Part shown: piece by piece, positions 55,801 to 64,000 of the stretch
Numbering within the stretch: the stretch's first letter is position 1
Layout of the letters: each line of letters opens with the position of its first letter
From: Escherichia coli
Lineage (GTDB): Bacteria > Pseudomonadota > Gammaproteobacteria > Enterobacterales > Enterobacteriaceae
Assembly: GCF_044647545.1 (NCBI RefSeq)
Contig: NZ_CP172818.1
DNA length: 64,000 nt
Reading direction: 5' to 3' (one strand)
Program-made: the position numbers

Positions 55801-58800
55801 GGCTCTGGTACTGTTTGCCTGGCTGATTGTTGGTGGTGGTGCGATTAACTATGTGATTCAAAGCGTCATCGCATAAACCACTACATCTTGCTCCTGTTAA
55901 CCCGCTATCATTACCGTTTTCCTCCAGCGGGTTTAACAGGAGTCCTCGCATGAAATACATTGGAGCGCACGTTAGTGCTGCTGGCGGTCTGGCAAATGCC
56001 GCAATTCGCGCCGCCGAAATCGACGCAACCGCGTTTGCCTTGTTCACCAAAAACCAACGTCAGTGGCGTGCCGCACCGCTCACGACGCAAACCATCGATG
56101 AATTCAAAGCCGCCTGTGAAAAATATCACTACACATCGGCGCAAATTCTTCCCCACGACAGTTATCTGATTAACCTCGGACATCCGGTCACTGAAGCTCT
56201 GGAAAAATCGCGCGATGCCTTTATAGATGAAATGCAGCGTTGCGAACAGCTGGGGCTTTCTTTGCTCAACTTCCACCCTGGCAGCCATCTGATGCAGATT
56301 TCAGAAGAGGATTGCCTTGCGCGTATTGCCGAATCCATCAACATTGCGCTGGATAAAACTCATGGTGTGACAGCGGTGATTGAAAACACCGCCGGTCAGG
56401 GCAGTAACTTAGGGTTTAAATTCGAACATCTCGCGGCGATTATCGACGGCGTGGAAGATAAATCCCGCGTCGGCGTCTGCATTGATACCTGCCATGCTTT
56501 CGCTGCCGGGTATGATTTGCGTACTTCTGCCGAATGCGAGAAAACGTTCGCGGATTTTGCCCGTATTGTCGGCTTTAAGTATCTGCGCGGGATGCACCTT
56601 AACGATGCGAAAAGCACCTTTGGCAGCCGCGTTGACCGCCATCATAGCCTCGGTGAAGGCAATATCGGTCATGATGCGTTCCGCTGGATCATGCAGGACG
56701 ACCGTTTCGACGGAATTCCGCTGATCCTTGAAACCATCAACCCGGATATCTGGGCAGAAGAGATCGCCTGGCTGAAAGCGCAACAAACTGAAAAAGCGGT
56801 AGCCTGAAGATGAATAACCGGGAGAAGGAGATCCTTGCAATATTAAGGCGTAACCCGCTGATTCAGCAGAACGAAATTGCGGATATGCTGCAAATCAGCC
56901 GTTCGCGTGTTGCAGCGCATATTATGGATTTAATGCGCAAAGGACGGATTAAAGGCAAAGGTTACATTCTCACCGAGCAGGAATACTGCGTAGTGGTGGG
57001 GACAATCAATATGGATATTCGCGGGATGGCGGATATCCGTTACCCGCAAGCGGCTTCTCATCCCGGTACCATTCATTGCTCGGCAGGCGGCGTTGGACGC
57101 AATATCGCCCACAATCTGGCGCTGTTAGGCCGCGACGTTCATTTGCTTTCAGTGATTGGCGATGACTTTTATGGCGAAATGCTCCTGGAAGAAACGCGCC
57201 GCGCCGGCGTGAATGTCTCCGGCTGCGTTCGTTTACATGGTCAAAGCACATCGACGTATCTGGCAATTGCCAATCGAGACGATCAAACCGTGCTGGCGAT
57301 TAACGATACCCATCTGCTGGATCAGTTGACACCGCAACTACTGAACGGGTCGCGCGATTTACTTCGTCATGCGGGCGTGGTACTGGCAGATTGTAACCTG
57401 ACAGCCGAGGCGCTGGAATGGGTCTTTACCCTCGCTGATGAAATCCCGGTGTTTGTCGATACCGTTTCAGAATTCAAAGCGGGCAAAATCAAACACTGGC
57501 TGGCGCATATTCACACCCTGAAACCCACTTTACCGGAGCTGGAAATTTTATGGGGACAGGCGATCACCAGCGATGCTGACCGTAATGCCGCAGTGAATGC
57601 ATTACATCAGCAAGGTGTTCAGCAACTGTTTGTTTATTTGCCCGATGAGTCAGTTTATTGCAGCGAAAAGGATGGAGAACAATTTTTGCTGACCGCACCA
57701 GCGCATACGACAGTAGACAGTTTTGGTGCTGACGATGGTTTTATGGCGGGTCTGGTATATAGCTTTCTGGAGGGAAACAATTTCCGTGACAGCGCCCGTT
57801 TTGCGATGGCCTGCGCAGCAATTTCACGCGCCAGCGGCAGCTTAAACAACCCTACCCTGTCTGCCGATAACGCGCTTTCATTAGTGCCGATGGTGTAACA
57901 ATGTTGCCGGATTCGACGCTTGACCGCGTCTTATCCGGCTCATAACTCGCGCACTACGCTAAACCAATAAAGAACCCGGCAATGGTGGCACTCATCAGGT
58001 TAGAAAGTGTCGCCGCCGCCAGCGCGCGTAAACCAAGCTGGGCGATTTCCGGCGCACGGTGTGGCGCAACCGCAGAAAACGCCCCCACCACCACCCCGAT
58101 AGAACCAAAGTTAGCGAAACCGCACAACGCGAAGGAAATAATCGCCACGGTTTTAGCATCCAGAGTGCCAGCTGTTTGCAGATAAGGTGAGAAATTGAGG
58201 TAAGCGACAAATTCATTTATTGCCAGTTTCTGTCCAATCAAACTCCCGGCAAGATTCGCATCACTCCAGTCAACACCCATTACCCACGCCAGTGGGGCCA
58301 GCAGGTAACCTAAAATGGACTCCAGCGAGGCATGTTCAAAACCAAACCAGCCGCCAACGCCGCCGATAATACCGTTAATCAACGCAATTATTGCAACAAA
58401 TGCCATCACCACTGTCGCCACACCTGCGGCGATTTTCAGCCCGGTCATTGCCCCTGTCGCAGCGGCTTCAATAATGCTTTTTGGCGGTGTTTCGGTGAAA
58501 GAGAGGTTATTAAAGGAAACCTGCGAAGATTCCGTGGCCGGACTTAACAGGCGAGCAAATAAGATCCCGCCAGGGATCGCCATTAACGATGCCGCCAGCA
58601 AATATTCCACAGGTACGCCCAGTGCGGCGTAACCAATCATTGTCGAACCAGCAATCGAGGCCATGCCACTACAAATCGCTGTAAATAATTCATTGCGATT
58701 CAGCCGATCGATAAAGGGTTTGACGATTGCCGGAATTTCGTTTTGCCCGAGGAAAATGGTAGTGACCGCGACGAATGACTCGATCTTGCTGATATTTAAT

Positions 58801-61800: not shown

Positions 61801-64000
61801 GTACGCCCATTCCGGCATAACCGATCATCATCGAACCCGCAATGGACGCCATCCCGCTACAAATTGCAGTAAACAACTCGTTGCGATTCATGCGATCGAT
61901 AAACGGTTTAACGATCGCAGGGATCTCATTTTGCCCGAGGAAAATAGTGGTAACCGCAACAAAAGATTCGATTTTGCTGATGTTGAGAGCTTTCTGAAAA
62001 ATACTGCCAAGAATGCGGATTAGCAGCCCCATCACGCCAATGTAGTACAGCAGACTGATGAGCGCAGTAACGAAAATAATCGCCGGAAGTACGCGAAAGG
62101 CGAAGATAAAACCCGCACCGTCAAACAAGACATCCATTTTCGGCCCAACCAGCGAACCAAAAATGAAGGCGCTACCGGCATCACTGTAAGACATCACTTT
62201 ATGAACGCCTAATGCCGCCAGTTCAACTGCCCATTTTCCCGGTGGGAAGTAGAGCATGATGCCACCAATAGCGATTTGCAGCAGCAGCGCGGCTCCAACC
62301 GTGCGTAAACTGATGCTCTTTTTATTCACTGATAACAGAAATGCTATTACCAGTAACACCACCATCCCCACAACACTTCTCATTATATCCATAATGATTT
62401 CCCCTTCATACCAGTAAACCCGACGTCAGCGCCAGGTTCTGGTATGTATGATCATACGGGCGACGGCTTTCTGCCCGTCAGAAATTAACCCGCGAGACGC
62501 TGGTATTCTTTGGCAATTTCGCTCGCCAGAATGGCGTTGTTGAACACCAGTTGGATGTTGGATTTCAGACTGTCACCGCCGGTCAGTTCTGCAACACGAG
62601 CCAGTAGGAACGGTGTACTTTCTTTACCAATAACGCCCTGCTCTTCGGCTTCGGCGACGGCCTGATCTATGGCTGCATTAATTGACTCCTCCGCCATCGC
62701 AAACTGCTCCGGGATCGGATTCGCCACTACCAGACCACCGTTCAAACCGGTTTGCCATTTCACTGCCATTGCACGAGCGATTTCTGTGGCACTATCAAGG
62801 CGAATGCTGACCTCAAACGGGCTGGTACGGCAGAAAAACGCAGGCAGCGCTTTTGTCTGATAGCCAATTAACGGCACACCGAAGGTTTCTAAATATTCTG
62901 TTGTTAATCCTAAATCGAGAATGGATTTTGCACCGGCACAAACAACGGTGACATTAGTATTTGCCAGTTCTTGCAAATCGGCAGAAATATCGAAGGTATG
63001 TTCCGCCCCGCGATGCACACCACCAATTCCCCCGGTGGCAAATACTTTAATTCCGGCAAGCGCCGCAATAATCATCGTTGAAGCCACAGTGGTTGCGCCA
63101 TTTTTTCCGGCGGCAACAACAAAAGGTAAATCGCGACGACTAACTTTGGTCACGTTATGCCCTTCGCGACCCAGCAATTCAATTTCTTCTTTGCTTAAAC
63201 CCACTTTCATCACGCCGCCAATAATGGCGATAGTGGCAGGTACAGCGCCCTGTTTACGAATAGTTTCTTCAACTTCAATTGCGGTCTGGGCATTTTGTGG
63301 GAACGGCATCCCATGAGAAATAATGGTCGATTCCAGCGCCACAACCGGTTTTTTGTTTTTTAAAGCGTCCTGCACTTCCGGGGAAATTTGTAATAATTCA
63401 GGGGAAATTTTTAATTCAGACATTCTGCGTTCTCCACTAACGATATAACGTTGGCAATCGATAAATCGGGGTTATTGGTGTATTCACAGGAGAGCGCCAT
63501 TGACGAACATCCCTGTGCGAAACGAACGGATTCGGCAAACGGCATTCCGTCTACCCAACACGAAGCAAGTCCCGCCATCATGGCATCGCCCGCTCCGGTA
63601 ACATTAATAACATTGGTTTTGATCGGCGCAGACCAGCCACTTTCACCGCTGATATCGCTGTAATAAACGCCATCGCCGCCCATGCTCAATACCAGTCGGT
63701 TCAGCCCATGTTGATGGAACCAGGCAGCAACTTTTGCCACATCTTCACGCCCTGACAGCGCAATCCCACTCAGGGTTTCCGCTTCAAGGCGGTTTGGCTT
63801 GAGAGTGTGGATTTGATTTAGACGGTCGCGCACTTTGACACATTTCCACGCAGAAACCGGATCGACAAATACGGGTACGTTGGCGGCATTATCCAGAATC
63901 CATGCCAGTGCCTCTTCACTGATATTACAGTCCGCGACAATGACCTTTGCCCTCTGAATAAATTCACGATGCTGTGCGAGATATTCAGCTGTAATAGCGT

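Follow-up and report, generated by a model that had tools for sequence, protein, structure and literature searches.

Two salvage cassettes with probably anciently duplicated permeases: the nupX and psuT genes of Escherichia coli

Why do two pairs of neighboring genes in Escherichia coli, each composed of an enzyme gene followed on the same strand by a nucleoside permease gene, resemble one another so closely? The question is raised by a stretch of 64,000 nucleotides, referred to here as the window, from contig NZ_CP172818.1 of E. coli assembly GCF_044647545.1. The region from 53.8 to 64 kb of the window is the lysP-fruA neighborhood of E. coli. On its minus strand, rihB (59304..60245), encoding a pyrimidine ribonucleoside hydrolase, lies upstream of the permease gene nupX (57954..59204), and psuG (62485..63423), encoding pseudouridine-5'-phosphate glycosidase, lies upstream of the permease gene psuT, also named yeiM (61142..62392). 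A preliminary description of this DNA interpreted the two pairs as an old segmental duplication of a two-gene module that had diverged in substrate and might serve as a substrate for recombination. The genes, their paralogy and their genomic position are those of known, annotated E. coli genes, and our core finding adds little to them. What is added is modest, namely a set of natural hybrids, a candidate specificity residue, a leader hairpin and a genomic slot for cassettes, along with the correction of a tempting misreading: like gene layout need not mean co-duplication.

We are fairly confident that the locus holds two separate salvage cassettes in which only the permease units are homologous, by an ancient duplication, and that the two permease copies are still recombining. 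As we picture it, the fruA-nfo interval of E. coli holds two pyrimidine-nucleoside salvage cassettes arranged head to tail. The psu cassette, made up of psuK-psuG-psuT and the convergent gene yeiI, would take up pseudouridine, phosphorylate it and then cleave its C-glycosidic bond, and the rih cassette, made up of yeiL and rihB-nupX, would take up uridine and cytidine and then hydrolyze their N-glycosidic bond. The permease units would descend from a single ancient duplication predating the radiation of Escherichia, Citrobacter, Salmonella and Leclercia. Since the flanking enzymes are unrelated, the shared enzyme-then-permease layout would reflect functional coupling and not co-duplication. 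Rare homologous crossovers fuse the 5' part of psuT to the 3' part of nupX and remove 3188 bp, and with them the 3' end of psuT, yeiL, rihB and the 5' end of nupX; gene conversion homogenizes the 3' ends of the permease genes.

The two permeases are paralogous over their full length. Both have 416 amino acids (aa), of which 367 are identical (88%, with 95% positives) in a gap-free BLASTP alignment. The genes align without gaps from end to end at 78.7% nucleotide identity, with 88.7%, 95.2% and 52.0% identity at codon positions 1, 2 and 3, respectively, and sliding-window identity runs from 63% to 83% with its peak in the 3' 40% of the gene. The likeness that had first been noticed at the termini therefore extends throughout, and identity outside the termini is not low. 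The near-identical 3' DNA was also correctly described: the 26-mer singled out earlier occurs exactly twice, at 57961-57986 and 61149-61174 (0 expected by chance), and sits within a 29-nt exact run at the 3' end of the genes (57958..57986 on the minus strand, identical to 61146-61174); no perfect match between the two genes is longer. They form direct repeats, lying on the same strand 3188 bp apart.

The limits of the repeat decide what was duplicated. Continuous DNA similarity between nupX and psuT starts 17 nt upstream of the ATG, and beyond it stands an isolated 28-nt leader block (96% identical), whose distance from the ATG is 26-53 nt in nupX and 66-93 nt in psuT. Within this block a 25-mer is shared exactly by the two leaders (0 expected by chance) and marks a stem-loop on the minus strand at 59230..59254, 26-50 nt upstream of the nupX ATG, and at 62458..62482, 66-90 nt upstream of the psuT ATG and directly after the psuG stop codon. 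At the other end, the local alignment of the window copies ends just before the stop codon, but in an alignment of several strains the shared unit continues for about 46-50 nt beyond it, through a hairpin of the repetitive extragenic palindrome (REP) type. This hairpin directly follows the stop codon on the minus strand in both copies, at 57904..57953 for nupX (about 50 nt, orthologous to the spacer between psuT and yeiI in E. albertii and with a weak naRNA4/REP-like match in Rfam) and at 61096..61141 for psuT (about 46 nt). No DNA alignment was found inside rihB or psuG, and no similarity extends more than about 90 nt ahead of the permease ATG. BLASTP likewise gives no similarity between RihB and PsuG (best E = 4.4), and Pfam places the two enzymes in different families (PF01156 and PF04227), so the two-gene module was not duplicated; of the module first proposed, the permease half holds and the enzyme half does not. 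The repeat unit is the leader hairpin, the 1251-bp permease gene and the REP hairpin, and not enzyme plus permease.

The divergence of the copies indicates that the duplication is old. By the Nei-Gojobori method, the proportion of synonymous differences (pS) between nupX and psuT is 0.63, synonymous divergence (dS) is about 1.4, nonsynonymous divergence (dN) is 0.077 and dN/dS is about 0.055. Synonymous sites are saturated, and saturated dS together with low dN/dS points to an old duplication with strong purifying selection on both copies, in agreement with the old paralogy of NupC-family permeases suggested at the outset. Across alleles, pS between nupX and psuT is 0.60-0.64, compared with 0.36-0.47 between the psuT genes of E. 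coli and E. albertii and about 0.63 between those of E. coli and Citrobacter. As it equals the last value, the split of the permeases is at least as old as the split of the genera. Saturation holds at the 5' end but not at the 3' end, where dS is down to 0.71 over the final 56 codons. Nucleotide phylogeny was set aside because pS is about 0.6-0.7 in all between-genus comparisons.

The two cassettes also occur apart from each other. Related loci were compared using a one-genome-per-species scan (among the matches listed, so that nothing follows for Escherichia species that do not appear there), gene mapping, and contigs encoding close homologs. In E. albertii, Citrobacter werkmanii, C. youngae, Citrobacter sp. 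FP75 and a Leclercia metagenome-assembled genome, the fruA-nfo interval has psu genes only, with psuK-psuG-psuT convergent with yeiI-nfo. In Leclercia adecarboxylata, Salmonella enterica, C. portucalensis and a metagenomic contig that encodes the closest relative of NupX, the order is fruA, yeiL, rihB-nupX, nfo, without psu genes and without yeiI. Both cassettes with rih first (yeiL, rihB-nupX, psuK-psuG-psuT, yeiI) are found in GCA_046366295 and SRR1749246, and E. coli has both with psu first and the rih cassette between psuT and yeiI. In Superficieibacter, yeiL-rihB-nupX is present in a different context. The regulator gene yeiL always travels with rihB-nupX, and in loci L084-L091 a cNMP_binding gene lies beside the IU_nuc_hydro and permease genes.

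In aa sequence, E. coli PsuT shares 94-98% identity with the lone permease encoded in psu loci of Citrobacter and E. albertii, as opposed to 88% with NupX, and a neighbor-joining tree places a nupX clade, weakly, apart from a psuT clade. Clade-diagnostic residues number only 4-6 (positions 56, 88, 112, 123, 188 and 195); E. coli NupX and PsuT show the expected states at all of them, and these residues agree with cassette context. Because PsuT is closer to the PsuT of Citrobacter and E. albertii and the cassettes are found singly, the permeases are ancient paralogs, each in its own cassette, and the adjacency of nupX and psuT in E. coli is a juxtaposition of cassettes and not a duplicated module. 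The segmental duplication of the preliminary description is not shown to have been made in place, given the psu-only and rih-only loci and the reverse order of the cassettes in another lineage. The fruA-nfo interval can thus be regarded as a slot in which two salvage cassettes get swapped, combined and lost across the Enterobacteriaceae.

Several routes could have led to this juxtaposition. It is quite possible, if short of probable, that the rih cassette entered a psu-only locus after the split from E. albertii by way of permease or REP homology, for example through a Campbell-type crossover of a circularized yeiL-rihB-nupX with psuT. In E. albertii and several Citrobacter psuT lies directly against yeiI, E. 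coli nupX and E. albertii psuT have an orthologous stop codon and downstream spacer (89.6% over 260 nt), the extra 3188 bp are bounded by permease and REP repeats as a homology-driven insertion predicts, and the opposite cassette order elsewhere implies at least two independent assemblies. Such an insertion has to be reconciled with the absence of a clean chimeric signature in E. coli nupX and psuT, in sliding-window distances or in triplet informative sites against psu-only and rih-only genes, where sites are saturated and diagnostic residues occur only in 56-195. Moreover, a far-3' deletion between psuT and nupX, like that of strain 11PC described below, could equally yield the E. albertii state from a two-cassette ancestor, the divergence of rihB matches that of flanking core genes, and 99.85% of E. 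coli genomes carry the rih cassette. The alternative is that both cassettes are ancestral and have repeatedly been lost; loss of the rih cassette by E. albertii from such a two-cassette locus fits the data equally well.

A recent in-place duplication of psuT alone in the E. coli lineage, followed by capture of yeiL-rihB and fast evolution of one copy, is very improbable. The single permease of the sister species E. albertii, the match of its downstream flank to the E. coli nupX flank noted above, and the REP hairpins after both copies would all suit such a history. However, pS between nupX and psuT exceeds that between the psuT genes of E. coli and E. albertii, psu-less yeiL-rihB-nupX cassettes with NupX-type residues at 56, 112, 188 and 195 exist in Leclercia, Salmonella, Citrobacter and Superficieibacter, and RihB is 90-93% identical in aa sequence across genera, like the products of flanking core genes. 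A tandem duplication of an enzyme-plus-permease segment whose enzymes then diverged beyond recognition can practically be dismissed: the two units do share the order and strand of enzyme, spacer of about 95 nt and permease, and RihB and PsuG both cleave a ribosyl-pyrimidine bond, but the enzymes match their different Pfam families over their full length without pairwise similarity, co-duplicated enzymes could not have lost all similarity next to permeases that are 88% identical, the DNA similarity reaches no further than about 90 nt beyond the permease ATG on the upstream side, and each cassette occurs singly in other genera.

Juxtaposed cassettes with homologous permeases offer direct repeats for recombination, and such recombination has left traces in E. 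coli, as had been suspected. Single-permease loci were sought by joining 1 kb from the yeiI side to 1 kb from the psuG side and searching 5,426 complete E. coli genomes. Five genomes, those of CFSAN004176, 11PC, SY019, E203449 and EH10-18-47, have one intact permease gene (416 aa, 1251 bp) between yeiI and psuG and have neither rihB nor yeiL; across all genomes searched, rihB-yeiL is present in 5,418 (99.85%) and absent from 8. Compared site by site with the alleles of K-12 and of the window, each of the five genes has one clean switch from psuT-type sequence at the 5' end to nupX-type sequence at the 3' end. Scores against the K-12 alleles were 247-265 of 258-265 informative sites, with 265/265 in EH10-18-47. 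The breakpoints are all distinct, falling at nt 756-768, 924-948, 984-990, 1083-1089 and 1207-1221 of the coding sequence, and that of 11PC, at the far 3' end, maps beside the 29-nt identical block. The five hybrids are independent homologous deletions of the 3188-bp inter-repeat segment.

In addition, nupX of strain SCPM-O-B-8794 has 19 consecutive psuT-type sites at nt 1083-1191 with both permease genes in place, a tract of non-reciprocal gene conversion from psuT to nupX. Recurrent conversion of the 3' end would account for the fall of dS to 0.71 in the last 56 codons and for the near-identical 3' DNA. The 3' ends and REPs of nupX and psuT are a mosaic that varies by strain: K-12-type nupX has a psuT-like stop codon (GCTTGA) and proximal spacer with an extra REP of about 52 nt directly downstream (L002 2898-3003), and the end of nupX in the window strain (57899-57953) is E. 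albertii-like (GCGTAG).

These events resemble deletion and gene conversion between other diverged direct repeats, in which the repeats are likewise direct, the hybrids in frame with a single switch, the deletion equal to the repeat spacing and the conversion tracts located at the more similar end. They differ in that the repeats here share only about 79-83% identity and no perfect run longer than 29 nt, in their rarity (5 of 5,426 genomes) and in the confinement of all breakpoints to the 3' 40% of the gene. The locus provides direct evidence that, in natural E. coli populations, deletion and gene conversion still take place between repeats sharing about 80% identity. The five PsuT/NupX chimeras are also ready-made domain swaps, each keeping at least the N-terminal 250 residues of PsuT, including residue 188.

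Residue 188 is of interest because it may bear on substrate. NupX and PsuT belong to one subclade of the CNT family alongside vcCNT (PMC11241209), and in the N-terminal half their numbering matches that of vcCNT. In vcCNT the base is contacted by G153, Q154, T155, E156 and V188, and the ribose by E332, F366, N368 and S371 (bioRxiv 10.1101/2023.02.03.527023, PMC4139061). The aligned nucleoside-contact residues are identical in NupX and PsuT except at position 188 in TM4b, which contacts the base as Val188 in vcCNT, is Thr in NupX and Met in PsuT, and is among four strictly clade-diagnostic positions. G153, Q154, E156, the INEF and FANFGS motifs, the HP1 motif GQ(N/T)E and the aligned HP2/TM7 contacts are conserved in both proteins. 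Compared with vcCNT, position 155 is changed from Thr to Asn in both and position 188 from Val to Thr or Met. The sodium-site residues Asn149 and Val152 of vcCNT are replaced by Thr and Leu in both proteins, and Ser183 and Ile184 of TM4b are conserved; the altered residues at 149 and 152 may imply a different cation coupling, perhaps to H+ as in NupC.

NupX takes up uridine and cytidine at low efficiency, and no uptake of uridine, cytidine or xanthosine was detected for PsuT (PMC11241209). The published uptake and the Thr/Met difference at 188 together support divergence in substrate, as the preliminary description had suggested. Judging from the alignment, this divergence would rest mainly on residue 188, which makes it a single candidate specificity residue for pseudouridine versus uridine recognition in CNTs.

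Some observations weigh against the picture of two old cassettes with distinct and still recombining permeases. Bootstrap values are only 60 for the nupX clade and 59 for the psuT core, the saturated nucleotide informative sites do not group E. coli nupX with the nupX genes of rih-only loci, and no clade-diagnostic residue lies in the C-terminal half of the protein, where ancient as well as recent exchange may have blurred the history. The presumed specificity of PsuT for pseudouridine derives from operon association (PMC11241209). The five hybrids are known from assemblies and not from raw reads; collapse of a 79%-identical repeat during assembly is unlikely, and the five breakpoints differ as well.

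A search for the leader stem-loop motif GGCAG-N3-GC-N-GTCGCC in 1.5 Mb of loci returned 23 matches, all upstream of close nupX or psuT homologs, each of which is preceded by it. The full element, GGGCAG-N3-GC-N-GTCGCCC, has a 5-6-bp stem and an invariant loop signature and is found in both cassettes in several genera (L001-L011, L086-L096), with compensatory changes at two stem pairs; Leclercia nupX genes have a different hairpin at the leader position. A search of Rfam over 57800-63600 (E <= 1) yielded no family for the leader hairpin, the sole match being the weak REP-like naRNA4, and a consensus scan for sigma-70 promoters and terminators gave sites fewer than, or no more numerous than, those in shuffled sequence.

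The gene yeiI encodes a paralog of PsuK (38% aa identity) with an extra N-terminal helix-turn-helix (HTH) domain. It accompanies psuKGT in all loci examined that have these genes (L005-L009, L087, L088 and E. coli) and is missing from each of the six rih-only loci, a co-occurrence by which yeiI looks like part of the pseudouridine cassette. We tentatively suggest, as a doubtful possibility, that the leader stem-loop is an uncharacterized cis-acting RNA element inherited with the permease from the ancient duplication onward and that YeiI is a dedicated pseudouridine-sensing regulator of the psu genes. The stem-loop could act as a determinant of processing or stability, or as a protein- or ligand-responsive regulator.

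The gene identities on which this account draws are backed by curated family models, Pfam and the RefSeq annotation of near-identical genomes. The order along the plus strand is yeiE, yeiH, nfo, yeiI, then nupX, rihB, yeiL, psuT, psuG and the 3' part of psuK, with nupX, rihB, psuT, psuG and psuK encoded on the minus strand and yeiE, yeiH, nfo, yeiI and yeiL on the plus strand. NupX and PsuT, the products of the distal genes of the rih cassette and of psuK-psuG-psuT, were read as open reading frames and match the CNT family model TIGR00804 over their full length with 499.7 and 514.7 bits, respectively (cutoff 442); the CNT Pfam domains PF01773, PF07670 and PF07662 are precomputed on close homologs. 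Both share the fold of the CNT family (TC 2.A.41 / SLC28; NupC, vcCNT, nwCNT) at E = 1e-125 to 1e-131, with matches to the nwCNT structure 5L26 (E = 7.7e-131 for NupX and 1.9e-130 for PsuT) and to vcCNT 3TIJ (about 1e-125). They are 99.5% identical in aa sequence to the K-12 copies, NupX (YeiJ, P33021) and PsuT (YeiM, P33024), and the window genes are these genes, with the same neighbors as in RefSeq.

RihB matches the equivalog model NF007417 with 723.6 bits (cutoff 459) and PF01156 (IU_nuc_hydro) over its full length (E = 3.1e-98), and PsuG, which also carries the RefSeq psuG annotation, matches PF04227 (Indigoidine_A) over model positions 1-291 of 291 (E = 3.2e-132). The CRP/FNR-type regulator gene yeiL (60375..61073, plus strand; NF007707, 414.7 bits) is divergent from rihB. 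The gene yeiI (56810..57898, plus strand; NF007416), whose product combines the HTH domain with a PfkB kinase, is convergent with nupX, and the 3' part of the pseudouridine kinase gene psuK, or yeiC (63411..64000, minus strand; NF007355, profile positions 119-313), is truncated by the end of the window. As in the pseudouridine operon psuK-psuG(-psuT) of Preumont et al. 2008, insofar as it is cited in PMC11241209 and PMC9247573, the genes for kinase, C-glycosidase and permease are co-directional in the window. Relative to the operon as given there, yeiI always accompanies it in the loci compared here, and in E. coli the rih cassette parts yeiI from psuT.

The locus varies in other ways among E. 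coli strains. Intact nupX is lacking, with only a remnant left, in 983 of about 5,430 E. coli chromosome records. In Nissle 1917, the one record examined in detail, nupX has an internal 1135-bp deletion (window 58003-59137; L001 3599-3770). What is left of the gene is 66 nt of 5' and 48 nt of 3' sequence, with a premature stop, and the strain keeps yeiL as well as rihB, the latter without its partner permease. The microhomology of about 3 nt and the retention of rihB and yeiL rule out loss of the Nissle type as a paralog-mediated event. Strain CUPS04 (L003), a single genome, has lost nupX, rihB, yeiL, psuT and psuG in a deletion that runs between the 3' ends of yeiI and psuK (window 57716-63455), so that its junction falls between the two convergent kinase paralogs. 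The junction is not homology-mediated: recombination between these paralogs was considered and ruled out, as yeiI and psuK are inverted relative to each other and only 38% identical in aa sequence.

Divergence between the window and Nissle 1917 is uneven along the locus. The yeiH-nfo segment is 98-100% identical. Across yeiI as a whole identity is 80%, with a dip to about 70% in mid-gene; it is 93-98% for rihB-yeiL, 84-92% for psuT-psuG and about 80-84% for psuK. The Nissle copy of yeiI shares 91.6% identity with that of E. albertii as opposed to 80% with the yeiI of the window and K-12, and pS of psuT within E. coli reaches 0.41. This extreme divergence within the species could be due to introgression or to old balanced haplotypes.

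A chromosomal fragment with yeiL-psuT-psuG-psuK is also carried on the plasmid pEH08-18-36_1 (NZ_CP063512.1, 7337-11317; L097) and on similar E. coli plasmids of 185-300 kb. There it adjoins an ISVsa5 (IS4-like) transposase gene among IncHI-type trh transfer genes, and the PsuT and PsuG that the fragment encodes match the Nissle 1917 proteins exactly. The presence of the psu fragment on IncHI-type plasmids indicates that the pseudouridine operon has been mobilized. Plasmid carriage of the rih cassette was ruled out, since the matches are either chromosome-sized records or IncHI plasmids without rihB-nupX. In the E. coli genome searches, some genomes had three matching places and six places fell on records labelled plasmid; the IncHI psu fragment and the chromosome-sized records labelled plasmid account for part of these extra places.

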